64,000 nt of DNA from Myxococcota bacterium (GTDB lineage Bacteria; Myxococcota_A; Bradymonadia; UBA4248). Location: the NCBI GenBank assembly GCA_045643185.1, contig JAZUKH010000280.1, positions 1,448-65,447 on the forward strand. The letters run 5' to 3'. The position numbers and the translations under genes are program-made. Of this stretch, positions 2,458 to 63,123 are shown in pieces; the stretch's first letter is position 1; the number at the start of each line of letters is the position of its first letter. The notes beneath the pieces are model-generated. The model searched no databases. It had not been told where the DNA came from and saw only the letters and a program-made list of their open reading frames with translations.

Positions 2458-4417
2458 CATGACCTGGAATGACGCGCTTCAAGCGCGCTTTGCGCCATCG
2501 ACACCAACCGAGTTTAAAGACCAACCGAGTTTGAGCGAAGCTCAAGCGACGACGCTCGGTCATGCGCTTCGTATCATTGCGGATGACCACGCTGTGTTGT
2601 TGTGCGAAGACACGGGGACAGGCAAGACGTACGTCGCAGCGGCGTTAGCGAAGAACTTGTTGTCGCGCGGCACGATCGACAGCGTCGCGGTCGTCGGACC
2701 GGCCCATCTTTGTGGTATGTGGCGCACTGTACTGGCGCGTTTTGGGGTGAACGCGAGCTATTTGTCGTACCAAAGGGCGAGTTTGGGACATGAACCACGG
2801 GTACAGGGAAAAGCGTTGGTTTTGGTGGATGAGGCGCACGCGCTCAAAAACCCGACGACCCAAAGGTATCGCACACTCGCGCCGTTTTTGAAGCGTCACG
2901 CGCTTTGCCTGATCACCGCAACGCCGATCTCACTTGGTTTTGGCGACCTGAGTGCATTGCTTCAATTGTGTGGCCTGCCTGTCTCGATCCGGTCTGACAG
3001 CGACGCCCTGCGTATGTTTGCAATGTCACTCTGTCCGCGCTTTTTTGGCGCGCCGCTACGTCTCAATGAGGTCACCCACGAAGTGGTGCATCGCGCCATA
3101 CTTTTTGAGCTACCCAACGAGACCGAAGCCTTCGTCGATCTGTGTCTCGACACCCCCTGGCCCGTGTTTCAAAACGATCAAATGACGAATTCGACGCTGA
3201 TCCCACGCATTCTGCTTCACCGATTTCGCAGTCATCCGCACGCGAGCTTACTGTCGCTCAAACGCCTGCTTCGTTATTACGCGTCATGTCTTAAAACGGG
3301 CGCAATGCGTCCGATCACGCGCCGTGAATTCACGGCATTGTTTGGCCTTGAAGGCGTTCAACTGCCGCTCCCCTTCGGCCTTCGTGACGACGTCATGCCC
3401 ACTTCAGACGTACACACCATACTTGAACGCACGACGAGTCAGCTCTCGCGCATGATCGCGCTCGTGCAGACTATGCTTTCGTCCCCCGACATGCGCGTAC
3501 GAGCCCTGTTACCCGCCATTGCGGCGTCATCAGCCCCGGTCGTGCTGTTCACTCAATATGCCGACACCGCGCAGTTTGTGGCGCGTATCCTGGCTTCACA
3601 CACGGCGACTGGCTGCATCACCGCGTCGCAAGCGACGCTCAATGGACACACGATCGACCGTGACTTATTGCAAAACATGTTCGACCCCGATTTTGAATTA
3701 CCCGACACATGGCGAGCAGCCCATTTGCCCGTTCCACACGTATTGGTTGCGACCGATACACTGAGCGCTGGACACAATCTGCAACGAGCCGCCATTTTGT
3801 TCCACCTTGACCTGCCATGGAATCCAACCACGGTTCAGCAACGAGAAGGCCGTATTTTGCGCCATCACCAGCGTGCTGCGCGCGTCGAGCTGATCCGTCT
3901 TGAACCCCGTGCGATGCCTCCACGACTCGCAGCCATCGCTCAAAGCTTGACCGCGCGTTTTGAAGCGCGTCACGCGCTTCAAAACCAGTGGCACGACCCC
4001 TCGTTGATCACGAATCCAACGACGTTCATGCTCTCGGAGTCGCGTAAAATGCCTGGACTTTGGGCCAAGTTTGATGGCACTTGGTTGCCGATCCACCCAC
4101 AATTTGCGCGTGGTGCGCACATTTCACGTCGTCTTTCACTCCACGCTGCGTTGCTCCGCAGCGCACATCCCAATGCTTCCCAACTTCGCCGCCTCGTGGC
4201 CACACTCGCCCACGACCGCTACAACCCGTCCACGACGACGCGGCTATTGGCGCTTGAACGCTACGCCGAGATCACCGCACTTTGGCCCGCGCTCAACACG
4301 CCATTGAGCGACGACCCCGAAGCTGCTTTTGCTCAGATCGACGCACTACTCAACCAGTTTGCCGATCAACTGCCCGCCAACGCGACCGTCATGCTCGCAC
4401 AACGTGCCGCATGTTAA
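2450..4417 (+). CDS. SNF2-family (SF2) ATPase/helicase
   Basis: Walker A 'DTGTGKTYVAAA', SNF2-type 'VLVDEAHALKN' (DExH..KN), helicase motif VI 'QREGRILRHHQ'. Likely start is ATG 2450, preceded by an AGGAG RBS. Start overlaps the MTase stop (ATGAATGA), implying translational coupling. Confidence 0.7.
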   Translation: MNDMTWNDALQARFAPSTPTEFKDQPSLSEAQATTLGHALRIIADDHAVLLCEDTGTGKTYVAAALAKNLLSRGTIDSVAVVGPAHLCGMWRTVLARFGVNASYLSYQRASLGHEPRVQGKALVLVDEAHALKNPTTQRYRTLAPFLKRHALCLITATPISLGFGDLSALLQLCGLPVSIRSDSDALRMFAMSLCPRFFGAPLRLNEVTHEVVHRAILFELPNETEAFVDLCLDTPWPVFQNDQMTNSTLIPRILLHRFRSHPHASLLSLKRLLRYYASCLKTGAMRPITRREFTALFGLEGVQLPLPFGLRDDVMPTSDVHTILERTTSQLSRMIALVQTMLSSPDMRVRALLPAIAASSAPVVLFTQYADTAQFVARILASHTATGCITASQATLNGHTIDRDLLQNMFDPDFELPDTWRAAHLPVPHVLVATDTLSAGHNLQRAAILFHLDLPWNPTTVQQREGRILRHHQRAARVELIRLEPRAMPPRLAAIAQSLTARFEARHALQNQWHDPSLITNPTTFMLSESRKMPGLWAKFDGTWLPIHPQFARGAHISRRLSLHAALLRSAHPNASQLRRLVATLAHDRYNPSTTTRLLALERYAEITALWPALNTPLSDDPEAAFAQIDALLNQFADQLPANATVMLAQRAAC

Positions 4418-8210: not shown

Positions 8211-8309
8211 ATGTTCGTTATCTCGTCCGCGTCATCTGACTTGGCTTTCAAACAGAACGGTCATCAAATTTTCAATCTTGAACACTGTACTCGAAAAAAA
8301 CAAGTACAG

Positions 8310-8362
8310 AAAAAACCGCAGCTCTTTTACCCTAAAATAGCGTTTTTCGTCAAGCGTTTGGG
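8310..8362 (-). promoter_or_regulatory. candidate sigma70-type promoter (TTGACG -35) for paralog 2
   Basis: Coding strand carries CCAAACGCTTGACGAAAAACGCTATTTTAGGGTAAAAG, with the same 'GCTTGACGAAAAA' motif as upstream of paralog 1 at a similar distance (about 130 bp) from the start codon. Confidence 0.35.
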
Positions 8363-8385
8363 CGTTCCACGCCAACACTCAAAAC

Positions 8386-9705: not shown

Positions 9706-9763
9706 TTTACCTCACTTTGCACGCGCGAAACCCTTTATCTGGCGACAACGCGTTACAGGACGT

Positions 9764-10495
9764 CTACTTGAGCAATTGGAACATATTACGGAGCGCGTCA
9801 GCCGGTTCGGCATCGTACGTTTTATCAGCCTGAGCACACAGCGTGAACGCCAGAAGCTTGTGCGCCGAGGCATACACGAAAAGCGACGCAGTACAATCAC
9901 GATCGACCTCTTTTTCTTTGCCCACAAGGCTGGCGCTGTATTCCTCAACAAGGTTCTTGCACTTTTTGCCGGGCTTTGGATCCATGCAAAGATCGCGCTT
10001 CTGCACATTGTCCGTTGTGATTTTAGGCATGGCCAGCGTTTCACCCAGACTGTTCAAAACATTGATCGCAACATCCGATGCCTTGAGTTCAGCCGGGAAG
10101 TCAAGAATATCGACCGTGATCGTGGCAGGATTCTTGTCATCGGGTTCCACGGCGACCAGACGCTTCGCAGACGGCGTGATCTGCCAACGAAACGGAAAGG
10201 TCAACTCGCCAAACTCATCCGAGGTGTATGGCTGGTTGAGGGTGAGCGACGTCACCTTGACACCGACTTTAGGCGCAGGTGCCACTGGCGCTTCTTCCGG
10301 CGCTAGTTCAGCAACTTTTTCAGCCTGCTTCTGCTTTTCAGCCTGCTTTTGCTTTTCAGCCTGCTTCTGCTTTTCAGCATTTATGAGTAGCCCAAACTCC
10401 TCAGGCGGGACAGCAATAGCATCCGCCCAAACCAATGACGGCATCACGCAAAGGCCGACCCCAAGCCATAATCCCATCCAGATTCGTCGTTTCAT
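9764..10495 (-). CDS. hypothetical secreted protein with (AEKQKQ)n repeat
   Basis: Signal peptide 'MKRRIWMGLWLGVGLCVMPSLVWA'. An 18-bp tandem repeat (10312-10384) encodes AEKQKQAEKQKQAEKQKQ. Confidence 0.5.
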   Translation of the reverse strand: MKRRIWMGLWLGVGLCVMPSLVWADAIAVPPEEFGLLINAEKQKQAEKQKQAEKQKQAEKVAELAPEEAPVAPAPKVGVKVTSLTLNQPYTSDEFGELTFPFRWQITPSAKRLVAVEPDDKNPATITVDILDFPAELKASDVAINVLNSLGETLAMPKITTDNVQKRDLCMDPKPGKKCKNLVEEYSASLVGKEKEVDRDCTASLFVYASAHKLLAFTLCAQADKTYDAEPADALRNMFQLLK

Positions 10496-18150: not shown

Positions 18151-19557
18151 CTATTTGGCGAGTAGCTGTCCGCAGGCGCCACCCACGTTGACGCCACGGG
18201 CTTCTCGAAGCGTGACAAGGCATCCGGCGTCCTGCATGATCTTAATAAACGCCTGGATGCGCTCATTCGTCGGTGCCTGAAACACGAGACGCGGCGTAGG
18301 ATTGTATGGAATCACGTTGATGTTGTGCGGCAAGTCCTTGGCAAACTCGGCCAGACGCCGCGCATCGTCGTCGGAATCGTTGACATCGCGCAACAAAACG
18401 TATTCGAGCAAAACTTTTTCGTGCGAGCGATAAGGCCAGTCGACGAGCGCCTCGTGGATCTGAGCAAGCCCAAAGCGTTTGGTGATGGGCATGAGTTTGG
18501 CACGAACTTCGTCGGTCGTGGCATTGATGCTGATGGCCAGATTGGGACGCACCTTGGCGTTTTTGAGGCGCGGCAGCTCACTCAGCACGCCAGACGTCGA
18601 CAAGGTCATGCGCACCGGCGCAATGTTCAAACCGCACTCGCAAGAAAGCACCTCGATCGCGCGCAGCACGTTGTCGAGGTTCATCAACGCTTCGCCCATG
18701 CCCATGAACACGAGGTTGACCGAGTGCGAACGTTCAGGCCCGTAATTTTTGATCGCCCAAATGACCTGTTGCACGATCTCCCCCGCGGTGAGATTGCGTC
18801 GCAAACCGAGCGTCGCCGTAGCGCAAAACGCGCAGTTCATGGCGCAGCCGACCTGTGACGAGAGGCACAGCGTGACGCGCGGCGACTTGACGTCGCGCGG
18901 CATGTGAATGGTTTCAACCCGAGCGCCGTCTTTCAGCTCGTAAATGATGCGCGTCGTGCCGTCGTCGGCGCTTCGCGTCTCGGCAATGCGCATCGGCGTC
19001 GTGTCAAACGCCGTTTCAATCAGCATGGCAGGCTTGTGACCGATATCGGGCGCGTCGTCGACGTAGGTCCACGGCCTTTGCAGCGCGCGAAACAGGTGTT
19101 CGCCGCCAGCACGCGTGGGCAGTGCCTCCAGATCTTCGGGCAAAGCCGCATAGATCGAGGGATTCTGAGCCAATGCGTTTTGGACGGCTGGCAAAAACTC
19201 ACGATCAGCTTCGGTAAGGTCGAGCTTTTCGGCCTCGTCGATCGTAAACCAACCCACGGCCTGGTGTTCATTGAGCGTCATCTGGTCGGATTCGAGCCAC
19301 ACGCGGTAAAGGTGCACGCGGATCGTGCGATCGGGGTCATGCGTTTCGCGCGTCGTAACGTACTGCGTCGGATAGGCGGTAAGCCCAAGTTCCTCGTGCA
19401 GCTCACGGGCCAGCGCGTCTTCGGGACGTTCACCGGGTTCAATTTTGCCGCCGGGAAACTCCCATTGGCCGCCATGAGACTTTTGAGCACCGCGCTGGGC
19501 GGCAAAAAAACGCCCTCGTCTGAGGATGAGGGCGGCAACGACTTCTATTTCAAGCAT
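18151..19557 (-). CDS. rlmN: fusion protein: N-terminal NUDIX (MutT-like) hydrolase plus C-terminal radical-SAM rRNA/tRNA m2A methyltransferase RlmN
   Basis: NUDIX box 'GGKIEPGERPEDALARELHEELGL'. RlmN motifs 'SSQVGCAMNCAFCATATLGLRRNLTAGEIVQQV' and C-terminal 'GGACGQL'. Confidence 0.85.
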   Translation of the reverse strand: MLEIEVVAALILRRGRFFAAQRGAQKSHGGQWEFPGGKIEPGERPEDALARELHEELGLTAYPTQYVTTRETHDPDRTIRVHLYRVWLESDQMTLNEHQAVGWFTIDEAEKLDLTEADREFLPAVQNALAQNPSIYAALPEDLEALPTRAGGEHLFRALQRPWTYVDDAPDIGHKPAMLIETAFDTTPMRIAETRSADDGTTRIIYELKDGARVETIHMPRDVKSPRVTLCLSSQVGCAMNCAFCATATLGLRRNLTAGEIVQQVIWAIKNYGPERSHSVNLVFMGMGEALMNLDNVLRAIEVLSCECGLNIAPVRMTLSTSGVLSELPRLKNAKVRPNLAISINATTDEVRAKLMPITKRFGLAQIHEALVDWPYRSHEKVLLEYVLLRDVNDSDDDARRLAEFAKDLPHNINVIPYNPTPRLVFQAPTNERIQAFIKIMQDAGCLVTLREARGVNVGGACGQLLAK

Positions 19558-20259: not shown

Positions 20260-20994
20260 CTAACCGCGCTTTTCGCCGCTCGATCGCGTATCGCGCGCCA
20301 ACGCGCAAAGCTGATCGACATGTTCATTGTACTGAATCCCGACGTGCGCGCGCACTTTTTTGAGCTGCAAATTCGGAAATGTCGCCATAACCTCCTGAAT
20401 CTGCGCGATGAGTTCCTTATTGGCTTTGGCTTTCATGCCCCCCGTCAGCACACCGATCGCGTAAGCGGAGTCCGAGTAAATGATGACGGGCAGCGATTTA
20501 TTGGTAATACGCTGCATCGCGCGCAAAATCGCCGTCAATTCAAGCACATTGTTCGTCGTATGCTCGTAGAACTCCCAAATTTCAAGCTTGTGCGCGCCAA
20601 AGAGCATAAGCACGCCCAGCCCGCCCGGTCCGGGATTCGGACTACACCCGCCATCGGTATAAACGACGATCATGCCGGGCGGGATCGTCCCGTCATCACG
20701 CGGCGTTTCTGGCTTTTCGAGGCATTCTTTGCGCGGCGCGGGCGCTGACTTTTTATCGGTCTTTGGCTGCGTCTGAGCCGGCGTAAAATCGCGCGATTCC
20801 GGCATCGCACCTTCGATATACGAAAGGTTCGAACGCTTCGCACTATAAGCCGGTGCCCCATCTTCAAGCTTGTAAACAAAGCGCACAACGCCGTTTTCCT
20901 CGATCGGCGTCAGTTCGTCGTCCACGGGCACATAGACCTTATTGGCATGCTTAAAAACCATTCGAAGCCATTTCATGTCGCAACCTTCAGGCAT
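20260..20994 (-). CDS. rnhA: ribonuclease HI with an about 100-aa N-terminal extension
   Basis: 'VYTDGGCSPNPGPGGLGV', 'ELTAILRAM', 'VRAHVGIQYNEHVDQLCALA' are RNase H motifs. The N-terminal roughly 100 aa have no RNase H homology. Confidence 0.8.
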   Translation of the reverse strand: MPEGCDMKWLRMVFKHANKVYVPVDDELTPIEENGVVRFVYKLEDGAPAYSAKRSNLSYIEGAMPESRDFTPAQTQPKTDKKSAPAPRKECLEKPETPRDDGTIPPGMIVVYTDGGCSPNPGPGGLGVLMLFGAHKLEIWEFYEHTTNNVLELTAILRAMQRITNKSLPVIIYSDSAYAIGVLTGGMKAKANKELIAQIQEVMATFPNLQLKKVRAHVGIQYNEHVDQLCALARDTRSSGEKRG

Positions 20995-21100: not shown

Positions 21101-22894
21101 TTAGTTCTTACCAATAACAATGATGAGTACCACAGCCGCCAAAATGACGATGAGCAAACAAATGCAGGCCACAAGTGCCCCAAAGTGCCATTCGTAAAGT
21201 TCGTCAATGATCTGATTGAACTTACGCTTAAACGCGCCAGCCGCACGCCCCACGGGCGATTCAACCAGACGCGTCACAGGTTCGGACAGCATAATGCGCT
21301 CAAACCACGCCATTTCACCCAAACGCGTCGAACGCATGGAGCGACCGATCATCCTGCTCGACAGAAACTTCGTCTTCTGTTCGTGAAAAACAGGTGGCGG
21401 CTCTTCATCCTGTGTCTGAGGATGCCATTCAGCATTACGATCCATTCGACTGATCTGGTGATTCTGTAAAAACTTGGTTTTCTGCGAATGAAAAACCGGC
21501 GGCGGATCCTCGTCCTCCCCCACTCGCCTGTTCAGGCAATTCGCCGGAAGACGCGGTGCCTCGATGGTCGGTTGACGATACGACGCAGATACCTGACAAT
21601 TCTGAACCTGATGAGGATTCACGATGCCAGCATCGTTCGTCTTCATATATTCGTTCATTTCGTCTTCCGAACCAGTGCAGAACATGAGCGTATTGGCGCT
21701 GCTGATATCTTCGATGACGGGCTGATCCAGGTTGACCGTAGCATCCGCGTCATCACTGACTGGACGACGCGGATACAATTCAGGATGCGCCATCGACGGC
21801 GGTAACGGCAAATTGAGACGACTCATGTCGTCGGTCGGCGCGTTGTCATCTTCAGCAAACTCGTCGTAAACGACCGTGCCCTGACTCGACGTGGCGCCAA
21901 CTTCATCCTCCGGCGTCTTGAAGATCGCCGTGTTGAACGCACTAATGTCTTCCGAAGAATACTCGGACAGGTTAATGCTAGTCTCGTTGGTCGCAGGAAA
22001 AACTGGGACGTTCGACGACACCTTGTCGTAAACGTCAAACCACGCTTTGTAACGCGTCTCGATGTCTTTCAGGTCGTTGATCATCTCTTGCGCATTGGCA
22101 TAGCGCATCGAGACATCCTTGGCGATCGCCTTCCTGAAAACATCAAACAACGGCCCCTCACAATACGGCTTGGGGATCTCGGGAAACTCTTTGAGCTGAC
22201 GCTGAATGACATCGCTCAAATTCTTGCCTGCAAATGCCTGTTTGCCCGTCAACATCTCAAAAAAGACGAGACCGATCGCATAGATATCGCTGTGAGGACC
22301 GAGGTTTTTGCCAAAGAACTGTTCAGGCGGCATGTACTGCGGCGTCCCAAAACCGACCGAATTTTGGAAAAATTGCTTGGTCAGGTCGGGTTGCGTGCCG
22401 TCAAAGGCTTTTGCGATACCGAAGTCGAGCAATTTCACGGTGTCACAATCGTAGCCCTCGTGAATCAGCATAATGTTGGCCGGCTTCAAATCGCGGTGAA
22501 TAATTGACTGGTTGTGCGCTTCGCCAAGGGCGCTCAAAACCTGTGTAATGACCTTGACCGAGTAGCTGTATGAGAGCGGCGCATTTTGTTTAATGGCATT
22601 TTCGAGGTTGATGCCGTTGACGAACTCCATGACGAGGTAGAGCGTGCCATCGGGCAAAGCGCCGTATTCATAGACCTGAACGATGTTCGGGTGACAGAGC
22701 TTGGACGAACACGAAACCTCGCGTAAAAAGCGCTGCTGTTGGTCGGGGAGCTGATTGGTATCACCTGGGCGCGAGCATTTGATGCCGACGTCGACACCCG
22801 TGTTGATATCCCGGGCACGAAAGACATCGCCGAAGCCACCATCACCGATCTTATCCTCAATGATGTAATGAGATAACTGTTCCCCAATATTCAT
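21101..22894 (-). CDS. Ser/Thr protein kinase (Hanks-type) with C-terminal TM anchor
   Basis: 'IGDGGFGDVFRARD', 'HRDLKPANIML' and 'DFGIAKAF' are kinase motifs. C-terminal TM 'LVACICLLIVILAAVVLIIVIG'. Confidence 0.9.
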   Translation of the reverse strand: MNIGEQLSHYIIEDKIGDGGFGDVFRARDINTGVDVGIKCSRPGDTNQLPDQQQRFLREVSCSSKLCHPNIVQVYEYGALPDGTLYLVMEFVNGINLENAIKQNAPLSYSYSVKVITQVLSALGEAHNQSIIHRDLKPANIMLIHEGYDCDTVKLLDFGIAKAFDGTQPDLTKQFFQNSVGFGTPQYMPPEQFFGKNLGPHSDIYAIGLVFFEMLTGKQAFAGKNLSDVIQRQLKEFPEIPKPYCEGPLFDVFRKAIAKDVSMRYANAQEMINDLKDIETRYKAWFDVYDKVSSNVPVFPATNETSINLSEYSSEDISAFNTAIFKTPEDEVGATSSQGTVVYDEFAEDDNAPTDDMSRLNLPLPPSMAHPELYPRRPVSDDADATVNLDQPVIEDISSANTLMFCTGSEDEMNEYMKTNDAGIVNPHQVQNCQVSASYRQPTIEAPRLPANCLNRRVGEDEDPPPVFHSQKTKFLQNHQISRMDRNAEWHPQTQDEEPPPVFHEQKTKFLSSRMIGRSMRSTRLGEMAWFERIMLSEPVTRLVESPVGRAAGAFKRKFNQIIDELYEWHFGALVACICLLIVILAAVVLIIVIGKN

Positions 22895-22918: not shown

Positions 22919-23527
22919 CTAGAAATTTTCCGCACCATTCGTGGGCGGCGCATCATTTGTGGGGCTCCAGGCGCCTTCGGTATAAATGGAGACGCTATGT
23001 TGCCAGCATTGTGCAGCGATAGGTTTGGACGCGCCGACACAATCTTCGATACAGGCATCGAGCAAGTCTTCGCGTTCCGATTCCTGAGCAGATTCGGGCA
23101 ATTTATCGGCACATGGCTGCGCGCACGACTCTTCGAACGCGTTGTCTCTGGCCTCTTCGAGCGTGGGACCAATGGCTTCAGCGGTAAATTCCTGGCCTTC
23201 AAAAGCGATCTTGGCTTCACAACGCACGAGGTCGCCGATATCAGCCGGTTCATCAGGCGTCGCGTCATCCTGCTCAGCGGCGTCATTGGTATTTCCATCG
23301 GCGGCATTTTCAGCAGCGGCCGCCCCAGCCGGTGCGTCAGCGTCGGCTTGCTCGTCTGCCACTTGGTCTTCTGTGACAGCATCGCCAACAACTGCGCCGT
23401 TGTCATTCACTTCGACCGTTTGTGACGGCGCCGGCGCTGACGGTTCAGCGACCTTAGACGTCGTTCCACACGCAAACAACGTGAAGGCGAAAAGAAGCAC
23501 AAAACTATGTAAAACCAATGATCTCAT
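22919..23527 (-). CDS. hypothetical acidic lipoprotein
   Basis: Lipobox 'LFACGTT'. Asp/Ala-rich, with a Cys-rich C-terminus. Lies 24 bp upstream of the kinase gene. Confidence 0.5.
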   Translation of the reverse strand: MRSLVLHSFVLLFAFTLFACGTTSKVAEPSAPAPSQTVEVNDNGAVVGDAVTEDQVADEQADADAPAGAAAAENAADGNTNDAAEQDDATPDEPADIGDLVRCEAKIAFEGQEFTAEAIGPTLEEARDNAFEESCAQPCADKLPESAQESEREDLLDACIEDCVGASKPIAAQCWQHSVSIYTEGAWSPTNDAPPTNGAENF

Positions 23528-23640
23528 TCAATTATCCCATCACAAACCGATGCGGCTAATCCGCATCGGCGTTTTATAAGCCGAATCCGGCATTCGAGCA
23601 ACAATCATCCACCAAGCGATCAACGGGGGCGTCGACCTCT

Positions 23641-26532
23641 CTATTTCAGTTTTTCGAAATCAATGAGGTCCTCGATATCCGGTCCCTTTTTGTCATCAGC
23701 CTGACCGGCGTTGTCCTGCGCCTTTTTGAGTTCCGCCTCTTTTTGGGCTTCTTCAAAGTTTTTCTGAGCCACCGCGGCGTGCATATCGAAATCTTCCTCA
23801 ACTTCTTCGCGCTGAGCGGTATTATCATGGATCATATCGAGCTCAGTATAGGCAAACCCTTTGATGACGAGATCATCGGGTGCCGTTTTTTCGACCACTT
23901 CATCGGGATCAGTCGGCTCATCGAGCGTGAGTTTGAGTTCTTCGACGACGGGCTTTTTAGGCGCCTGATTTTTGAGTTCTTCGAGCTCGCGCAACGCCTC
24001 TTCGCGCTCTTTGATAGCCTGTTCACGGGCAGCAGCCTGTTTTTCAGCAATGAGTCTGGCCATTCGTTCGGCATAGGATTCCGGCATAGCCTTTGGCTCG
24101 TCATCATCATCGAGTTCAAGTTTGAGGGCATTGGCCGCTTTGGCGCGTTCAGCTTCTTCAATTTTTCGCTGCTGTTCGGCTTCGAGTTCTCGGATCTGTT
24201 CGCTGCGAGCGTCGCCAACCGACACCGTTTTGACCTGCACGTCTTTGAGCGCCTCAACAGGGTGAGCATCGAGACGAGCGAAGTCAGGCGCCTCATCTTC
24301 GTTAAGCACGAGGTGTTGATTTTCGAAAGCAGCCTCGCGTTGAGCCATCTGAGCCTCTTCGAGTTCACGAATCTGGGCTTCGCGCTCGGCGAGTGCAGCG
24401 CGTTCGGCGTTTGAAAGCACTTTGGGCTTTTTGACCTCGGTCTGAGCGTTCGAAGCCGCACCAGCAGCCGGTTTTTCGTCATCGAGCGTCATCTTGAGAT
24501 CATAGTGCGTTGCAGGCGCATCGTCATCGAAGAGACGCGTGAAGTCTTTGGCCTGAACGTCGCCAAACTCAGCCTCGGTGGAGCTTGTCGCACGGGCTTC
24601 GCGCGCCTGCTCGTACACCGATTTGACCGGCTCGACAGGCTTGACTTCGACGGGCTTCACGGGTTCCGGTTCTTCGTCGAGCGTCATTTTGAGATCATAG
24701 CTGGTCTTATGCTCGGTCGTAAAGAAATCGCCCGAGAAACTACGTGCCTTATCTTCAATGGCTTTTTGTTCTTCCGAACCGTCGTCGAATTTTGGGATCT
24801 CGTTTTCCTGGAGATTATCAAAAAACGCGTTGAAATCCTTACCCGTGTTGACAGCTTCAGCGGGCATGACCGATTCTTTTTCGACCTGGTCACGAATGGA
24901 CGAGTCATCGGCATCAGCCTGTTCAAAGAAGCTTGAAAAGTCTTTTTTGGGCTTCTCAGCTTCGTTTTCGGCATTTTCGGCTTTAAAATTCTCTTCGTCA
25001 GCGGCACGTCGATCATCGTCAGCGCTAAAGAAGCTGGAAAAGTCTTTGTGTTCGACCTCATCGGCATCCTCGTCATTGAGGTGATGCTCTTCGACATCGT
25101 TGAAGAACCCTGTGAAATCCTTAGCTTCTTTCTGCGCGTCAGCATCCTGAGTGGCATTTTCCTCGTTGGCGCGGCGAGCGGCCTCGTCATCGGCATCAGC
25201 GGCGTCAAAGTATCGTGCACTGGCTTCGACCGTCCCTTCGTCATCGGTCATTTTGAGCTGTTCGTGTACGTATTTTTCTGGTTCCGCGTTGAGCAACTCA
25301 GCTTCGCGTTCCGCGGCTTCAACAGCGAGTTTTGCGCGAACGGCTTCCTGTGCCTGACGCTGTCGTTCTTCAAAAAGCTTGGCTGCTTTCGCCTCGCTTT
25401 CTTCTTTGGCATCGTGGAAGCTGTTATCGACGTAGCCATTTTGGAGCTGGTCGGGATCCACGCCGGCATCCTGTAAGATCTTACGAGCTTCTTCGTCGAG
25501 TCCGGGCACTTCGATGCGGCGTTCGGGCATTTCCATGAGTCCCTTAATGAAGCAACGATATTCAGCGATGGCACCGGTTTCAGGCAGCTCGACGGTTTTT
25601 CCACGCAACGCGGCGAGTGCAATGATCGTAAGGATGGACGTGTCGTAATACTTGGGCACGGGGTAATGCTGCGGCGACAAGTAAGCGTCACCAGCTTTTT
25701 TTGCACAATCCTCGGCAAACCATTCGGCGACGGGCGCGAGCACTTCGCCGACCATGTCAAACTGCCCGTTGAGCACGCAGGCGATGGCGGTGTTAAGGCA
25801 GTCGTAGCGTCGAATCTTATTAAGAATGGACGCGGGCGGGTTACCGCGCAGGCTGTCGCGAGCCTTCATATACATATTCAGCGCCACGACGGCTTCGTCA
25901 TCAAACCCACGGCCGATCGAAGCCAGCACACCGGCATAAATGACGGCGCTCAAACCAGCGAGTTCGTAGAAGTCGGCACAAAAGTCACGGCGGAAGAAGG
26001 AAGTCATGAGGTTTGCTTCTTCCATGACGTCGTCAGACGCCGTTTTGCCGATGACCATCATCAGTGGAATGCCATACGTCGCGGCGAATTCCATGGTGAG
26101 CATGGGCATGCCGCTCATGATGCCAACTTCGACGGGCATGATACGGCGCGTCATGAACATTTCGGGCGGCTTGAGTTCGAGGTGCATGGAAGCGCGGTCG
26201 TGCAGACAGCGTGCGGCCATGAACATATCGTCGATGACTTCGAACACGTCGTCACCGGCGGCAAACCTGAGTTGAGAACGCTGCAGATACCAGTCAAGAT
26301 TACGGTAATCGGTCTCATCGCAGTGTTTGCTGAAGAAATCGGTACACTCGTCGAGCCTGGCATCGATGGCTGCAAGATCGATATTTTTGATACGTGCGTC
26401 ACCGCGTGGCGCGGTTTCAAACTCGTTGACCACGGTCGGTTCAAAAGATTCGGGGTTCAAATTTTGTTTTGTATTCGTCGAATCCGTATCGCTCATGCGT
26501 TTTCTCCTCAGCAAAATAAGTTTGGTCTGCAT
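23641..26532 (-). CDS. large hypothetical protein: N-terminal globular region plus long acidic disordered C-terminal half with repeated short linear motifs
   Basis: 963 aa. C-terminal half contains 'KDF[ST]xFF' (five or more occurrences) and 'LK[ML]TLD[DE]E' (about five occurrences), with Glu/Asp/Ala-rich coiled-coil-like stretches. Confidence 0.6.
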   Translation of the reverse strand: MQTKLILLRRKRMSDTDSTNTKQNLNPESFEPTVVNEFETAPRGDARIKNIDLAAIDARLDECTDFFSKHCDETDYRNLDWYLQRSQLRFAAGDDVFEVIDDMFMAARCLHDRASMHLELKPPEMFMTRRIMPVEVGIMSGMPMLTMEFAATYGIPLMMVIGKTASDDVMEEANLMTSFFRRDFCADFYELAGLSAVIYAGVLASIGRGFDDEAVVALNMYMKARDSLRGNPPASILNKIRRYDCLNTAIACVLNGQFDMVGEVLAPVAEWFAEDCAKKAGDAYLSPQHYPVPKYYDTSILTIIALAALRGKTVELPETGAIAEYRCFIKGLMEMPERRIEVPGLDEEARKILQDAGVDPDQLQNGYVDNSFHDAKEESEAKAAKLFEERQRQAQEAVRAKLAVEAAEREAELLNAEPEKYVHEQLKMTDDEGTVEASARYFDAADADDEAARRANEENATQDADAQKEAKDFTGFFNDVEEHHLNDEDADEVEHKDFSSFFSADDDRRAADEENFKAENAENEAEKPKKDFSSFFEQADADDSSIRDQVEKESVMPAEAVNTGKDFNAFFDNLQENEIPKFDDGSEEQKAIEDKARSFSGDFFTTEHKTSYDLKMTLDEEPEPVKPVEVKPVEPVKSVYEQAREARATSSTEAEFGDVQAKDFTRLFDDDAPATHYDLKMTLDDEKPAAGAASNAQTEVKKPKVLSNAERAALAEREAQIRELEEAQMAQREAAFENQHLVLNEDEAPDFARLDAHPVEALKDVQVKTVSVGDARSEQIRELEAEQQRKIEEAERAKAANALKLELDDDDEPKAMPESYAERMARLIAEKQAAAREQAIKEREEALRELEELKNQAPKKPVVEELKLTLDEPTDPDEVVEKTAPDDLVIKGFAYTELDMIHDNTAQREEVEEDFDMHAAVAQKNFEEAQKEAELKKAQDNAGQADDKKGPDIEDLIDFEKLK

Positions 26533-26725
26533 TCATGCGGCGTATTCGCGCACGCGAATAGCCGCATGGCGTCGGGCGTATTCGCAAAGCGAATAGCCCG
26601 CGCTCCCCAAAATATCCCAAATAATCGTCATTTCAGCGTTGCAACGTGTTTTCCGTAGCAACGACGCGAGCCTTAGGCGTTTTCATTCAGCGCAGCTCGC
26701 ATTTCAAACATCCCAAGCACGCGGA

Positions 26726-28624
<1,899 letters not shown>

Positions 28625-28761
28625 AATATGCCCCGTAATCAGAGCTGCACGACGCAGCGGTAAAAAAAATGCGCGTGCATTTTAACTGTACGGCCTATTT
28701 AACGCAAGAAAGGACGCGCAAATTTGGACATTATTTGCGCGTCAGGATCTGTTTGCCGAAC

Positions 28762-29974: not shown

Positions 29975-30955
29975 TTAAGCGATATCGGGTGACTCGACGC
30001 GGAAGAGCTGTTGTCCAAGGAAGATGAGGTCGCCGTGATAGAGGCTGCAACGGCCATTTATTTTCATCCAAGTTCCGTTAGAGGAATTCATGTCGAGGAG
30101 GTAATAATTTCCGTCTTCGCGCGGGAAGATCTGAGCATGTCTTCCGCTCATGAAGCGGTCTTTATTGAAGATGATATCGCCCTGTTCACGTCCGAAGTTA
30201 GCGCCTTCGGGTGAGAGGCAATAAACATTCTGAGTAATATTGCCGATACCGATCTGTACGAGTTTGAAATCGCCGTTTGTCGGGGGTGATCCCATATATC
30301 GGGTACCATCGGAGGAACGAGCTTTTGAAGAAACGACCTGTTCGAAGCGTTCGAAGCGGAGCAACTGTCGTCCAGCCAAAAAGACATCACCGGGGTGCAA
30401 CATGACCTCACCGCGCACGCGGATGTATGAGCCATTGAGGCTATCGAGGTCTTCGATATAAAGGCTTCGGTCTTTAACGATGAGTCTTGCCTGACGGGGC
30501 GAGAGGTAGGCATCGGTCGGGAAGCGGGAGTCGCCGGAGCGGCCAATGATGGTCTCGTTGTATTTCAGGGGGATACGCGCGCCATCGGTAGAATCTTCGT
30601 TGATCTGAATGAGGGAGATATCGAGATCGATCGGCTGAACGTCGATCTCCTCGAATTCGTGTTTATCGCCAGCATTACCGAGGTAAGCGGCGCAATAACC
30701 GCAATACTTATTGGAGCGGGGGCAAACGGCACCACAGCTTCGACAATGGACTTCATTTTCGCCGACGGGGGCGGAATAAAAGATGTCGGAGAGGGAAGAA
30801 TCGCCGTAGGCATCGTGACCAACGCTCGAAGAGTTTTTACGACGTTTTGCGGAACCGCCACTGGAAGCTTTGTCGTCTTCTTTCGCAAGGACTTTGAGCA
30901 GGACCTCGGTAAGACGCTCATCGATGTGGCCGGCATTAGAACCATTAACAGTCAT
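29975..30955 (-). CDS. zinc-ribbon plus tandem FHA-domain protein
   Basis: 'HCRSCGAVCPRSNKYCGYCAAYL' zinc ribbon. Two FHA cores ('IIGRSGDSRF...LDSLNGSYIRV' and 'FGREQGDIIF...MNSSNGTWMKI'). Confidence 0.8.
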   Translation of the reverse strand: MTVNGSNAGHIDERLTEVLLKVLAKEDDKASSGGSAKRRKNSSSVGHDAYGDSSLSDIFYSAPVGENEVHCRSCGAVCPRSNKYCGYCAAYLGNAGDKHEFEEIDVQPIDLDISLIQINEDSTDGARIPLKYNETIIGRSGDSRFPTDAYLSPRQARLIVKDRSLYIEDLDSLNGSYIRVRGEVMLHPGDVFLAGRQLLRFERFEQVVSSKARSSDGTRYMGSPPTNGDFKLVQIGIGNITQNVYCLSPEGANFGREQGDIIFNKDRFMSGRHAQIFPREDGNYYLLDMNSSNGTWMKINGRCSLYHGDLIFLGQQLFRVESPDIA

Positions 30956-38806: not shown

Positions 38807-41800
38807 CTAACTCAACGACTTAGCAGCTTTTTTCATCTTCTTGTCGCAGAGTTTCAGCACATCGAACATGGAGTTAACGGACTCGACTGCGCTTGGATCA
38901 AGCCCCTGAGCCGCGTTGACGATCTTAACGACCTGATCGGCGTATTGAATGACCGCGTCAAAACGTGTTGACCAAGTCTTGACGAAGTCTTCTGACGCCG
39001 AAGTGCCAGACGAGACGGCAGGATTGTTTTGCGCACTGGCGAGTAAGGAACGGAGAGATTCGATCTGAATCGAGTTCGAACTAAGCGAGGCGTTGGCTTC
39101 GTCACGTTCGGCACGAAGTTGCGCCGATTCGGCTTCGAGAGCCGCCACGCGTTCTTTCGCTTCATCGGCAGCGGCGCGAAGCGCTTCGATATCACCGGCC
39201 GCATTCTGCATTTCAGCAATCTCAGCGCGCAATGCAGAAATTTGGTTACCGGCATCAACCGCTTCGGCACGAAGCTGTTCGAGTTCCGCACCCGTGATCT
39301 CGTTGGCTGACTGAGCCATGTTCAACGAGCTTTGAACTAAGTTAAACTCCTCTTTCGTGGAATCAAGTTCCTCTTTCAAATTTTCAATTTGCGTTTCGAG
39401 GTAAACGTTCTCTTCACGCGCTTTTTCAAGTTCCTGCTTGAGTTCCGCCACTTCGGCACCAGAGTTGGTCGAGCTTTCACTGGCTTCGTTGAGCTTGGAA
39501 CGCAGATCTTGAATTTCGCCAAAGTGACGCGTTTTTTCATCGTTGGATGCTTCGAGTTCGTCGCGCAACGCAACAAGTTCCTGCTGAAGTTTGAGGTTTT
39601 CTGCACAAACTTCACCGAGCTTGTCGTTGAGCGCCATGATCTGGCCATCGAAATCACCTTTAGCTTCGTTCGAGGCATCAAGTTGAGCACGCAACTGAAC
39701 GATCTCTTCCTCATTCGCGTTGGACTCAGCACGCAATTCGTCGAGTTCCGCGTTTTGACGGCTCACACAAGCCTGATATTCATCGACTTGGTCTTGAAGA
39801 GCCTTCGCCTGGTTTTGACTTTCAACGAGTTGTTGCTGCAAGGCTTCGGCATTGGCAGCATTCGCAGCAATGACGTTTTGAGCTTCACCAAGTTGCTGCG
39901 TCAGACTGGCAACAGCCTCGTCCTGACCAGCGACCGAGTTTTGAGCCTGAGCACATTGAGCCTGAACGGTTTCGATGTCCAACTTGAGTTCGGATACCTG
40001 ATCACGCAGCTTTTCGAGTTCTTCATTGGCGGCACCAAGCTCCGATTCGGCTTTGACGCGCGCCACTTCAGCATTATCACATTGTTGAAGTGCAGATGCA
40101 GCCTGTTCGAGTGCCTCGGCGCGCTCAGCTTCAGCCTCAGCCTGAGCTTTTTGGGCACGTTCCAACAGGGCGCTCATTTCTTCCGCCGCACGTTCGGCCA
40201 TGGCCTGAGCTTTTTCGGCCTCCAAGCAATTCTTTTCGACATCGGCCATTTGTTCGCGCAGATCCGACATTTCAGCTTCAGCTGACATGCGCGCATCATC
40301 TGACTCGGTGATGCCGTCATGTACAGCGCGCAACTCATTTTCTGCAGCGACACGAGCTTCCTTGGCCACCGACAGACTTTCTTTCAACGTAGCGACTTCG
40401 TTTTCGAGAACGCCAACTTTTTCAAGAACGTCGTCGCGTTCAGCCATCGTCTTTTCTAGGCACACACCAAGTTTTTCAGCTTCGTGTTCGGCGGCTTTCA
40501 AACGAGTCCTAAGTTGCGTCACCTCAATTTCGAGAGCCGCCGGGTCAGGCACAGCGCCAAGATCAGGCGCACTCATTGTGTAATTGTTTTTCTGAGCATA
40601 GACGAATTGAGGTTCAGACTCTTCCTGAATGCAACTGATCTCGGAACGCGGATCATCGATACAAGTCAGATTGCTAACGGACTGAACGACAGCGGGGATT
40701 TCAACCGATTCACCATTAACTTCTGGATCGTACGCATCACGCGCATCGGCTTCGTTCAGCGCCATCGAGAGCTTATCGACCTGAACGATCTCAGATTCTG
40801 CAGGCACAGCAACGTCGGCAAGGAATTCACCAGGTTGGTCGAGCGCATCCTCAATGGGGCTGATGTCTTCGTCCAACTCATTTTCATCCATATCGTCGTC
40901 GTAGCTGCCAACCGACACGTCATTGAAAGCATCGAAGTCACCGTTCTGATCGTTAACCTCGTCAGACAATGCGGACTCATCAGCATCGTCAATGGCTTCG
41001 ACGATAACGGACTCTCCAACGCGATTGGCCAAGGCATCGCGGTCGTCATCAACAACACTTCGGGCATCGGTCACCGGCAAAGGTGTATCGTAACCAGCGT
41101 CCTGACCCTCGTCTGCCATCGGAACCGCGTCGTCTGCCATCGGAACCGCGTCATCTGCCATCGGAACCGCGTCGTCTGCCATCGGAACCGCGTCGTCTGC
41201 CATCGGAACTGCGTCGTCTGCCATCGGAACTGCGTCGTCTGCCATCGGAACTGCGTCGTCTTCCATCGGAACTGCGTCGTCGTAGTCATGATTTTGGTCA
41301 TACGAAGCTTCCGCCACGTCATTTTGAGGCGCATTCATCGGAGCGTAAGCATCGACGAACTCTTGTTCCTCGCGATAAGCCGGATTTTCGCTACCATGAT
41401 AGCTATTTTCAACGTGGTTATCGGCATAAAGCACATTTTCGGGCATGACCGAATTGCCATAAGCCTCCTCGTTGGCCAAATTAGCGCTGCTATCGTATTC
41501 ATGTGGCACAAAACCGCGTTGCGGATGAGGCACCATGCGACCGCCGCGATCACGCTGATTTCGGCGTGGTGCGGGCGGTACCATATTGTTCACGGGGTTG
41601 CCTCCAGCGGCATTAACGGCCGGCATCTGAGATGACGAAGGCGCCGACACACCACTTGCTTCCCCAGCACGACCGATTGGAACGCTACGCGTCACACGTC
41701 GCGCCGTCGGCGCGATCTGAGCCGACGGCCCAACAGAACTATCTCGTCCAAAGCGGGCACCACGAGCCCTGGCGCCATAACGATCACCAAGCGGCGCAGG

Positions 41801-43201
41801 CGCGATCGGCATTTCTTCATGATCGACCATCTCTTCGACCGGGCCATTGTTCACCGGTTCGTCAGCCTGAATCTGCCCTGACACAGGTTCAGACACCGGT
41901 GCAGACGCATCGACCGGTTCTTCCTGAAATTCTTCGTCGCCTTCCATGGGCGGCATGCTCGCCCCCTCGTTTGAGGCCACTGATTCATAAGGCCCCTCGT
42001 CATTCGTCGCCGCGTCGATCTCATCGAGGCTAAACGCCTGGGTCGGATTAGGCGACGATCCAAACGATTCCTCGCCTCTGTCGTCAAAGCGACGCTCTTC
42101 CAGATCCTGATCTTCAACAGGAGCCGGTTCATTCGCGGCTTCAAAGTTGGCCGGTGCCCCAAGCTCTTCCTGCGGCTCGAACGCCGGCATCGGCGCCTGT
42201 GCAGGCGCAGCCTGCGCCACACGTTCCATTTCCTGATCAAAAGAAGGCTGGTTGATCATCGTCGGACGGAACGTACCGTTACTGTTCGGAATGGGACGCA
42301 TGCCCACATTATTAGGTAACGACGGACTTGGAATTGACGGTTGTTGTGCGCCAATACCACTCATCGGGATCTTGGGCGCACCTGGCATAGACGCAAAACC
42401 AGCAGGTTTGTTCTGAGGCATGCCAACCATCGGCGAACCAGGCATACCAGGCATAGGACTATTCGGCATTGGCCCACGACCACTCGCCAGCGAGCCGCCT
42501 GGCATCTGACCAGGCATGCCAACCATCGGGCCACCAGGCATCTGACCCCCCATCGGGCCACCAGGCATCTGACCACCCATCGGACCACCAGGCATACCAC
42601 TCATCGGACCGCCAGGCATCTGACCGGGCATGCCAACCATCGGACCTTTGGGCGGCATCTGACCAGGCATGCCAACCATCGGACCGCCAGGCATCTGACC
42701 GGGCATACCAACCATCGGCTTGTTCTGAGGCATCTGACCAGGCATCTGACCGGGCATACCAACCATCGGCTTGTTCTGAGGCATCTGACCAGGCATGCCC
42801 ATCGGAGCGCCGGGCATCGGACGTATCATGCCCGGTTGAGGCGCGGCACCAGGTAGTTCAGAAAACTCCAAATTCGATTCACCACAACGCAATACGTCAC
42901 CAGGACGAATCTCAAAAGGTTCCATCGGCTTGATGCGCATATTGTTCACATAACAACCGTTCGAGCTGTTATTGTCGATAAAATAATACCGACCGTTCTG
43001 GAAAACGACTTTAGCGTGAAATCGTGAAACAGCCTTCGTCATGATCCTCAGCATGTTACCTTCGTTGCGACCTATGGTCACTTCCGGCTGCTGCGCATTG
43101 ACATCGGCATAAAAAGACTGAAAATTCTGATCCCTATAGACAATTCGCGCCACGATGCATCTCCTTAAACGGATTTTTAGGCCCTCCCTTAGGGCATACA
43201 T
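38807..43201 (-). CDS. giant FHA-domain protein with Pro/Gly/Met-rich repeats, (DDAVPMA)8 repeat and about 650-aa coiled-coil C-terminus
   Basis: N-terminal FHA ('TIGRNEGNMLRIM...FIDNNSSNGCYVNN'). 'MPGQMPGGPMVGMPGQ' repeats. Eight copies of 'DDAVPMA'. Heptad-rich SMC/myosin-like tail. Confidence 0.75.
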   Translation of the reverse strand: MYALREGLKIRLRRCIVARIVYRDQNFQSFYADVNAQQPEVTIGRNEGNMLRIMTKAVSRFHAKVVFQNGRYYFIDNNSSNGCYVNNMRIKPMEPFEIRPGDVLRCGESNLEFSELPGAAPQPGMIRPMPGAPMGMPGQMPQNKPMVGMPGQMPGQMPQNKPMVGMPGQMPGGPMVGMPGQMPPKGPMVGMPGQMPGGPMSGMPGGPMGGQMPGGPMGGQMPGGPMVGMPGQMPGGSLASGRGPMPNSPMPGMPGSPMVGMPQNKPAGFASMPGAPKIPMSGIGAQQPSIPSPSLPNNVGMRPIPNSNGTFRPTMINQPSFDQEMERVAQAAPAQAPMPAFEPQEELGAPANFEAANEPAPVEDQDLEERRFDDRGEESFGSSPNPTQAFSLDEIDAATNDEGPYESVASNEGASMPPMEGDEEFQEEPVDASAPVSEPVSGQIQADEPVNNGPVEEMVDHEEMPIAPAPLGDRYGARARGARFGRDSSVGPSAQIAPTARRVTRSVPIGRAGEASGVSAPSSSQMPAVNAAGGNPVNNMVPPAPRRNQRDRGGRMVPHPQRGFVPHEYDSSANLANEEAYGNSVMPENVLYADNHVENSYHGSENPAYREEQEFVDAYAPMNAPQNDVAEASYDQNHDYDDAVPMEDDAVPMADDAVPMADDAVPMADDAVPMADDAVPMADDAVPMADDAVPMADEGQDAGYDTPLPVTDARSVVDDDRDALANRVGESVIVEAIDDADESALSDEVNDQNGDFDAFNDVSVGSYDDDMDENELDEDISPIEDALDQPGEFLADVAVPAESEIVQVDKLSMALNEADARDAYDPEVNGESVEIPAVVQSVSNLTCIDDPRSEISCIQEESEPQFVYAQKNNYTMSAPDLGAVPDPAALEIEVTQLRTRLKAAEHEAEKLGVCLEKTMAERDDVLEKVGVLENEVATLKESLSVAKEARVAAENELRAVHDGITESDDARMSAEAEMSDLREQMADVEKNCLEAEKAQAMAERAAEEMSALLERAQKAQAEAEAERAEALEQAASALQQCDNAEVARVKAESELGAANEELEKLRDQVSELKLDIETVQAQCAQAQNSVAGQDEAVASLTQQLGEAQNVIAANAANAEALQQQLVESQNQAKALQDQVDEYQACVSRQNAELDELRAESNANEEEIVQLRAQLDASNEAKGDFDGQIMALNDKLGEVCAENLKLQQELVALRDELEASNDEKTRHFGEIQDLRSKLNEASESSTNSGAEVAELKQELEKAREENVYLETQIENLKEELDSTKEEFNLVQSSLNMAQSANEITGAELEQLRAEAVDAGNQISALRAEIAEMQNAAGDIEALRAAADEAKERVAALEAESAQLRAERDEANASLSSNSIQIESLRSLLASAQNNPAVSSGTSASEDFVKTWSTRFDAVIQYADQVVKIVNAAQGLDPSAVESVNSMFDVLKLCDKKMKKAAKSLS
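41108..41282. repeat. 21-bp tandem repeat (about 8.5 copies) encoding (DDAVPMA)n
   Basis: GTCTGCCATCGGAACCGCGTC units with minor variants (C/T, G/A) seen directly in the sequence. Confidence 0.85.
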
Positions 43202-62894: not shown

Positions 62895-63123
62895 ATTTCC
62901 TCCTATCACAAACAAAATTGTTTGTGCTCGTTTCGGATCCGCGCCCCCTATGGGCGCTATATACACAAATACACTATATTATATGCAATGCACGCTTCAA
63001 CTTCAACGACTAAGCACGCATTTTGACCATGGTTAGCCCAATTGCCTATTATTTTAGGCGCGGCTATTTCATACGCCGCGCCCGCGTCGCTTCTCCCTCG
63101 CTTGAGCCGCCCGTACCGGACGG

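Follow-up and report, generated by a model that had tools for sequence, protein, structure and literature searches.

Two extremely acidic neighbouring proteins of a gut Myxococcota bacterium: a possible kinase docking platform and a predicted winged-helix protein with an inflated acidic linker

Two neighbouring genes on the minus strand of a 64 kilobase (kb) stretch of DNA from an uncultured gut Myxococcota bacterium (contig JAZUKH010000280.1; the whole stretch is called the window below) encode extremely acidic proteins, one with long poly-Asp tracts and the other with a long acidic tail of repeated short motifs. What do these proteins do, and do the two genes form one functional unit? Gene A (26726..28624; features lie on the minus strand unless a plus sign is given) is an open reading frame (ORF) of 632 amino acids (aa) with a pI of 4.4 and a net charge of -64. 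Gene B (23641..26496) has a product of 951 aa when counted from its probable true start. The reading that we favour, to which we give a probability of roughly one in three, is that the gene B protein is a multivalent docking platform or substrate for a kinase and that the gene A protein is a winged-helix protein with an inflated acidic linker. The two would be separate things that were made neighbours in one gut or rumen Myxococcota lineage.

The source lineage is made up of uncultured Myxococcota that were sampled from ruminants and from further gut or anaerobic sources, including dairy cattle colon and the omasum of goat and roe deer. A large protein collection holds 42 homologues of gene A and 176 of gene B, all unnamed or labelled "hypothetical". 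Gene A, gene B, their sub-domains and a small lipoprotein encoded after gene B were scanned against Pfam, NCBIfam, PHROGs and PADLOC, with PDB sequence searches in addition. By the Pfam, NCBIfam, PADLOC and PDB sequence results, the globular domains match no named family and neither protein belongs to one. A first-pass annotation of this DNA had described two extremely acidic ORFs of 632 and 963 aa, and both exist. The 963-aa ORF of gene B, which runs to 26532, is real, but its product is probably 951 aa and starts at M13, because GAGGAG lies 7 nucleotides (nt) ahead of the second ATG (26496), the database protein P0043 (100% identical to gene B) is 951 aa long and orthologues begin MSD or MSE. 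Gene B numbering therefore counts from 26496. The net charge of the 951-aa product is -104.

The acidic tail of gene B (aa 376-951, about 575 aa; 23644..25371) was characterized by motif scan, alignment and shuffling. It contains four KDFxxFF motifs (aa 459, 484, 518 and 553; 24820..25122), the last of which runs on into FFDNLQENEIPKFDDGS (to 24775), and two bipartite modules in which DFxx[FL]F is followed after about 10 aa by LKMTLD[DE]E (aa 585-609 and 650-674; 24475..24744). Five or more copies of KDF[ST]xFF and about five of LK[ML]TLD[DE]E had been reported at first, and both counts need to be lowered if the patterns are read strictly. KDFxxFF occurs four times (KDFTGFF, KDFSSFF twice and KDFNAFF), with KDFTRLF and SFSGDFF in addition; of the LK-type motifs, two are strict copies (LKMTLD) and the remaining three are the variants LKMTDD, LKLELD and LKLTLD. 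These numbers are far above expectation: in 20,000 shuffles of the tail the mean count of DF..[FL]F was 0.014, compared with 5 observed, and that of LK[LM][TE]LD was 0.0004, compared with 4 observed.

Alignment of orthologues revealed the tail to be a mosaic in which conserved islands are separated by variable, fast-evolving acidic spacers. The islands are FFDxxDxxDxAARRAN, KDFSxFF (twice), FFDxLDExAIPxFDDGS, DFFSxExxPxSxLKMTLDxEPEP, RDFxxLFD followed by LKMTLDE, AQxRELExEQARK, LKLELD and a continuous module of about 110 aa near the C-terminus (aa 806-916; 23749..24081). This last module is composed of a long charged helix and the segments LKLTLD/LQLTP, DLVIKGFAYxxLDMIHxNTA and EEDFDMHAA, and has no PDB or Pfam match. 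The earlier description of the tail as disordered thus fits the D/E-rich variable spacers but not this conserved helical module. Motif copy number varies across orthologues (DFxxFF from 1 to 7, LKMTLD-type from 1 to 6), and the bipartite DFxx[LF]F/LKMTLD unit of about 25 aa is duplicated whole in orthologues P0075 and P0061. Across the window and seven related loci (about 150 kb), no ORF other than gene B has the FF or the LK motif. Conserved islands, variable spacers, changing copy number and confinement to gene B together make up the pattern expected of short linear docking motifs, as had been suggested from the window sequence. Ser or Thr is frequent, though not strictly conserved, at fixed positions of both motif types.

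Two genes follow gene B in synteny. Directly after it lies the gene for the small acidic lipoprotein (22919..23527), with a signal peptide, an LFAC lipobox and a Cys-rich C-terminal part, and this is followed by a Ser/Thr protein kinase gene (21101..22894; Pfam Pkinase E-value: 4e-48) whose product has a C-terminal membrane anchor. The C-terminal membrane helix is present in every kinase orthologue. Related loci were collected in a genome scan (gene A relatives) and in a metagenome scan queried with the gene B N-domain alignment. The order gene A, gene B, lipoprotein, kinase is kept in all seven sufficiently long loci of the genome scan, often with an RNase H gene next, and the order gene B, lipoprotein, kinase is also found in 13 loci of the metagenome scan. 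Short-tailed relatives of gene B (L086-L089 and L091; 388-489 aa, about 40% identical to the gene B N-domain) lack FF and LKMTLD motifs and have the lipoprotein and a tail-anchored kinase downstream; there is no gene A upstream in L086-L089, while L091 has no upstream sequence. Similarly, L094 carries a long-tailed gene B with no gene A upstream and keeps the lipoprotein and kinase. As these loci retain the lipoprotein and kinase in the absence of gene A, the stable unit is gene B, the lipoprotein and the tail-anchored kinase. A very distant gene B-domain homologue (P0201) also adjoins a kinase-like gene, and an FHA gene neighbours the gene B block in part of the lineage only.

Three further features of this block were recorded. 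The window kinase has a single C-terminal membrane helix with almost nothing outside the membrane. Its linker carries a duplicated motif, E(D/E)PPPVFH(S/E)QKTKFL, that occurs only sporadically among orthologues. The RNase H gene (20260..20994), whose product is extended at the N-terminus by about 100 aa, comes after the kinase gene in the window and in L005, L008, L011, L014, L092, L093 and L095.

The N-terminal all-helical domain of gene B (aa 1-375; 25372..26496) represents a rare unnamed family and is very strongly conserved among orthologues. An exhaustive HMMER pass with the first 388 aa over 1.84 billion representative proteins returned 47 relatives in total, none of which has a Pfam match. 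Most of those that are complete are 270-400 aa long, stand alone and come from Myxococcota or from other organisms of high GC content. A profile search of a word-indexed protein database with the distant gene B-domain homologues returned 2 proteins. Gene B and its sub-domains gave no Pfam, NCBIfam, PADLOC or PDB match beyond low complexity and an 18-residue Clp_N-like stretch, and the structural model is weak and insufficient for a specific fold assignment; peptide-binding helical repeats of the TPR or 14-3-3-like kind were considered as candidates for the domain. A Met-rich segment within the domain (aa 100-170; 25987..26199; 12 Met of 71 residues, 17%) is the most conserved part of the protein, yet its AlphaFold confidence (predicted local distance difference test, pLDDT) is below 50. 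Long-tailed proteins have 8-12 Met in this segment, in contrast to 0-5 in relatives that are short-tailed or stand alone. Gene B shows neither a signal peptide nor a membrane helix, the maximum hydropathy being 1.59 and lying inside the globular domain; gene A likewise lacks both. For this reason both proteins are read as cytoplasmic.

Based on synteny and on the pattern of motifs, we infer that gene B is linked to the kinase as a docking partner or substrate. Gene B would be the cytoplasmic member of an older block that also comprises the small lipoprotein and the membrane-anchored Ser/Thr kinase. An ancestral protein of about 400 aa with a short acidic tail would have been expanded in this lineage to carry a polyanionic disordered region of about 575 aa, bearing [KR]DFxxFF, FFDxLDExAIPKFDDGS, LKMTLD and the bipartite DFxx[LF]F-N10-LKMTLD and ending in the conserved helical module. 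Together with the kinase, the protein would serve as a multivalent docking platform on the inner side of the membrane, and it may well be a substrate too; the tail motifs would be docking sites, and the Ser or Thr at fixed motif positions candidate phosphosites.

Mkap proteins of Myxococcus xanthus are kinase-associated helical-repeat adaptors. Like them, gene B has a helical, possibly TPR-like product whose gene accompanies that of a eukaryotic-like Ser/Thr kinase, its presumed working partner. We know of no counterpart to its giant acidic motif-bearing tail. The FFAT motifs of eukaryotes, whose name stands for "two phenylalanines in an acidic tract", offer a second comparison: as in FFAT and acidic activation domains, the gene B tail presents multivalent FF motifs in acidic disorder, for example FFDNLQE (orthologue consensus FFDxLDE). 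This likeness is one of pattern only and implies no homology; a receptor of the MSP/VAP type is not known here. A discussion of the balance between acidic and hydrophobic residues is given in PMC9241528.

Gene A relatives were identified in 92 GTDB species, every one a Myxococcota metagenome-assembled genome. Gene A and 35 family members gave no Pfam, NCBIfam, PADLOC or PDB sequence match other than low-complexity matches. In an AlphaFold2 model built on our gene A alignment (A1), aa 1-188 and aa 337-610 are confident (pLDDT about 90) and the region between them is disordered. The N-terminal domain (aa 1-188; 28061..28624), with the invariant segments HSTNELYRxxTSYVYPG and GIRW, is modelled (pLDDT above 90) as helices 35-59 followed by strands 61-71 and helices 101-149 followed by a hairpin at 153-162. 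A helix-turn-helix followed by a beta-hairpin wing is thus found twice, the two units being packed together, and a tandem winged helix is predicted with confidence from the model. Foldseek comparison gave the type IIS enzymes BpuJI and N.BspD6I, SelB and many winged helix-turn-helix regulators as the top structural matches. The type IIS enzymes share the tandem winged helices with gene A, but identity is 12-13% and the Foldseek E-value of 0.25 is not significant. Moreover, gene A differs from them in that it lacks a nuclease domain (no nuclease family was detected in Pfam scans) and in that its conserved residues lie off the usual recognition helix. The N-domain is neutral to basic (pI 7-9.7), while the C-domain is mildly acidic.

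The C-terminal helical domain (aa 337-610; 26795..27616) has a predicted fold that may resemble the two-lobed, all-helical one of HhH-GPD glycosylases, without conserved catalytic residues. In contrast to members of that group (endonuclease III (Endo III), OGG, AlkA/Mag1 and DUF2419), it shows no profile match and no conserved catalytic Asp or Lys. Specifically, Pfam HhH-GPD (PF00730) matched neither the window protein nor the 35 family members at E-values up to 1; the C-domain profile gave only low-complexity matches against PDB sequences; hhalign of this profile with Escherichia coli Nth (Endo III) gave a probability of 0.1, and no Nth homologue was present among the related loci for building a comparison profile. 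The Foldseek probability for HhH-GPD is just 0.23. Within aa 337-632, alignment A1 shows no Asp or Lys that is invariant or nearly so, and the stretch comparable to VDTH/VPVD reads IPLPKVRETSFRLGF. The domain is predicted to be at most a degenerate, non-catalytic HhH-GPD relative. A cluster of four Cys (e.g. GCEFRCRRAGVCPLPACREKGEV) ends the distant homologues P0023, P0026, P0029-P0035, P0039 and P0041 and is not found in the window protein; it is located where Endo III-type glycosylases carry their iron-sulphur cluster loop.

Between the two folded domains lie the poly-Asp tracts. Tract 1 (aa 186-222; 27959..28069) reads D13, AEDTS, D15 and tract 2 (aa 244-263; 27836..27895) reads D10, ADDAS, D5. 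Long tracts had been recognized at the outset, although the runs as assembled are D13, D15, D10 and D5 (within aa 190-263) and not D12 and D17. The expected number of D13 runs given the composition of gene A itself is about 4e-9. The Asp codons are mixed, with a GAC:GAT ratio of 31:17 in the tracts and 26:13 elsewhere in gene A, which is the same ratio; a loose 9-nt periodicity is present. The 22 closest homologues carry D/E runs of 5-12 residues directly after the N-domain, at the position of tract 1, and the window tracts are the longest. Whether tract length varies had been raised as a check, and it does: among orthologues poly-Asp ranges from D5 to D13 at a conserved position. Every one of the 35 homologues examined has an acidic linker (net charge -9 to -51, the window being the most extreme), so the poly-Asp is a lineage-specific inflation of an ancestral property and not a new invention.

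The tracts are followed by a disordered linker rich in Ala, Pro, Val and Lys (aa 264-336; 27617..27835; pLDDT below 50). Although it is hydrophobic, Pro recurs in it at intervals of 3-4 residues, and for that reason it is not a membrane helix. Tandem Repeats Finder identified a 33-nt repeat within it (27702-27799; period 33, 3.1 copies, 82% matches) that encodes the APVAAPKAVAA-type part, so the linker also grows by unit duplication. The exact 632-aa product is missing from a 15-billion-protein collection that does contain gene B and the lipoprotein from this 65.7-kb NCBI contig; gene A may have been called differently, or passed over, in the source annotation.

The gene A protein would be a cytoplasmic protein in which a tandem winged helix, an acidic disordered linker and a glycosylase-like helical C-domain without catalytic residues are combined. 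Its poly-Asp tracts may electrostatically tune or auto-inhibit binding by the winged-helix domain, competing with its ligand. HMGB1 is a nucleic-acid-binding protein with an acidic auto-regulatory tail. RNA polymerase delta (RpoE) of Firmicutes and gene A both have a folded helical or winged-helix-type domain followed by a disordered polyanion, the net charge of the gene A linker being -51. However, gene A has two winged-helix units, an internal acidic linker and a 270-aa C-domain after it, so that the architecture is analogous only, and HARE-HTH (PF05066) was not found in gene A by Pfam. Delta consists of an N-terminal domain (aa 1-90) and an acidic C-terminal region with a net charge of -47 (PMC7749165), and in Hfq an acidic C-terminal domain autoregulates the protein (PMC5606850).

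Outside the close lineage gene A has other neighbours. Among 84 loci (genome scan and earlier look-ups), a gene B-type gene stands beside gene A in 11, all of the close lineage. In 24 distant Myxococcota loci, rho lies directly downstream of the gene A homologue on the same strand (gap 23-556 nt), usually with an epimerase gene next; gene A is at about 8001-9800 in these loci (L003, L028, L033, L034, L037, L038, L041, L044, L045, L047-L051, L053, L056, L059, L063, L066, L068, L071, L075, L078 and L080). An unnamed gene of about 560 aa follows gene A in L007 (9861-11549), L016 (8970-10643) and L072 (8485-10212), where gene A is about 50% identical. Its product starts M(V)RTLRELR...LICSD(F/H)HVGE and has no Pfam match.

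Several points weigh against the kinase-docking reading of gene B and the winged-helix reading of gene A. First, Myxococcota genomes carry many Ser/Thr kinases, so that some adjacency by chance is expected. Second, N, G, K or E also occupy the Ser/Thr positions of the gene B motifs; as these positions are not strict, the motifs need not be phosphosites. Third, the conserved residues of gene A lie in helix 2, the next loop and the wing, and not in the usual recognition helix. As this is so and the C-domain is mildly acidic, nucleic-acid binding by gene A is a prediction from its fold only. Fourth, gene A stands directly upstream of gene B on the same strand in 19 of the 20 long-tailed gene B loci with upstream sequence, and this adjacency together with the parallel acidification of the two proteins could mean that both work together.

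The last point leads to the main rival, namely that gene A and gene B are a true functional pair, expressed bicistronically, whose products bind each other or the same target (for example, with the gene B motifs docking on the gene A C-domain). We regard this as possible, though we would not expect it to prove correct. Besides the 19 of 20 loci, it draws on the extreme acidity that both proteins reached in the same lineage and on the placing of hairpins. Hairpins follow lepB and gene B, but no terminator-like one lies between gene A and gene B: a perfect, terminator-like 11-base-pair (bp) hairpin after the lepB stop (28713..28743) separates lepB from gene A, and the gene B stop is followed by a GC-rich hairpin of 9 bp and then TTTGTG (23547..23569). 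However, gene A occurs without gene B in most of the 92 Myxococcota species, often beside rho; L094 and L086-L089 have no gene A yet keep the lipoprotein and kinase; and adjacency specific to one lineage, as this is, can be explained as inherited synteny. The proposed two-gene module therefore stands in a narrower form: orthologous pairs exist in the close gut lineage, and each gene occurs without the other elsewhere. The pair had also been placed upstream of lepB. It is downstream of lepB in transcription, with the terminator-like hairpin between, and lepB is not a conserved neighbour.

The 193-nt spacer between gene A and gene B (RNA fold z-score: -4.85) contains two tandem hairpins with 10-bp stems (26537..26601; copies at 26543-26598) directly upstream of the gene B start. 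They may affect gene B translation or transcript stability. A repetitive extragenic palindromic (REP) element is one palindrome that recurs at many scattered intergenic sites. The spacer hairpins, at first called REP-like, are a local tandem pair with no further copy in the 64 kb window, so that the REP label is not justified.

A second alternative retains gene B as a scaffold but has it associate with itself, as a hub or condensate scaffold like HubP, FimV or PopZ that organises a cell pole or membrane patch, with the kinase as only one client. Such a role would suit the very long, acidic and disordered tail, in which aromatic sticker-like motifs recur between variable spacers, and also the conserved Met-rich segment that accompanies the motif-bearing tail. 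HubP and FimV are also large proteins with an extensive acidic repeat-containing cytoplasmic region that is thought to recruit clients (PMC12918733). The gene B N-domain, however, is from a different unnamed family, and Pfam and hydropathy analysis identified no LysM-like domain, membrane segment or C-terminal FimV/TPR domain in gene B. Localisation of gene B is purely conjectural, and the joint occurrence of Met enrichment and the tail is probably one evolutionary event. Overall, we consider a hub of this type unlikely.

The charge of the two proteins (-64 for gene A and -104 for gene B, P0043) and Asp runs of up to 15 residues could instead suggest bulk buffers of polycations or metal ions (Ca2+, Mg2+, polyamines) or mineral binders, in which charge density matters and motifs do not. 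This is decidedly improbable for four reasons. First, both proteins are cytoplasmic, with no signal peptide or membrane segment. Second, conservation is strong in the globular domains and the short motifs, but the purely acidic spacers evolve freely. Third, poly-Asp length is not conserved (D5 to D13). Fourth, no EF-hand or other metal-binding family was identified in Pfam and NCBIfam scans. Among the functions first proposed for the pair, nothing was found in support of a mineral/calcium-binding or chaperone role. A scaffold is still the most reasonable proposal for gene B, whereas bulk cation binding fits poorly with the cytoplasmic location and the conservation of motifs.

A more specific mechanism, and a long shot, is a sticker-and-spacer scaffold. 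Here the Met-rich groove of the gene B N-domain would capture FF motifs, either from the tail of the same protein or from tails nearby, and multivalent head-to-tail assemblies would form at the membrane. They would be switched by kinase phosphorylation of the motif Ser/Thr, with gene A as a client; this would be a prokaryotic counterpart, arising in Myxococcota, of the FFAT-like docking systems of eukaryotes. The N-domain may bind the tail motifs of its own protein, as the Met-rich segment and the FF-motif tail arise together. This co-appearance is a lead and not evidence, since it is probably a single evolutionary event.

Extremely acidic composition, and a gene A N-domain fold like that of the recognition domain of type IIS restriction enzymes, would also be compatible with DNA mimics or an anti-restriction/defence pair whose acidic tracts imitate DNA against nucleic-acid-binding enzymes. 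This is very improbable. The chromosomal neighbourhood is one of housekeeping genes (lepB, trmD, clpX, era, der and RNase H), there is no PADLOC match, PHROG matches are confined to the low-complexity acidic region, inheritance with the kinase is stable across the lineage and gene A has no nuclease domain.

Finally, the poly-Asp tracts could be an artefact in which simple repeats were collapsed or expanded during assembly. This is barely credible and was rejected on orthologue and codon evidence: the loose 9-nt periodicity, the metagenome-assembled contig and the missing exact gene A sequence (with its neighbours present in the protein collection) are set against D/E runs at the same alignment position in more than 20 orthologues from independent assemblies, which carry the same features with variable copy number, against mixed Asp codons in the ratio of the rest of gene A and against an intact reading frame with both flanking domains conserved. 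The exact tract lengths given here are those of this assembly.

Other genes of the window may be described briefly. Directly upstream of lepB lies a gene whose product has two FHA domains in addition to a zinc ribbon (29975..30955). The FHA-lepB pair is upstream of gene A in L005, L014 and L015, while L001, L002 and L006 have other genes there; lepB and the FHA gene were therefore rejected as parts of the unit. A 1464-aa protein (38807..43201) has an N-terminal FHA domain and a long coiled-coil or filament-like C-terminal region, and a giant ORF of 3456 aa (52596..62966) contains at least six DUF4215 (myxobacterial Cys-rich repeat) domains. At 13..4417 (+) lies an N6-adenine methylase gene of the Eco57I/MmeI type, whose product has a TaqI_C specificity domain; the SNF2/ResIII helicase gene after it overlaps it, and the two may be a restriction-modification or defence pair. 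In a single ORF (18151..19557), NUDIX hydrolase and radical SAM domains are fused.

Long polyanionic disordered regions in which short linear motifs are conserved and multivalent are a common feature of eukaryotic signalling and, to our knowledge, are rarely documented in bacteria; Myxococcota are known for eukaryote-like signalling. In gene B a region of this kind is joined to a domain from a rare unnamed family, and gene order ties it to a tail-anchored Ser/Thr kinase of eukaryotic-like type. Should docking by the motifs and the link to the kinase prove true, this gut-associated lineage would provide a simple natural system for following the expansion of a motif array and the use of a scaffold by a bacterial kinase, and would give a first functional handle on two protein families that are unnamed in databases.

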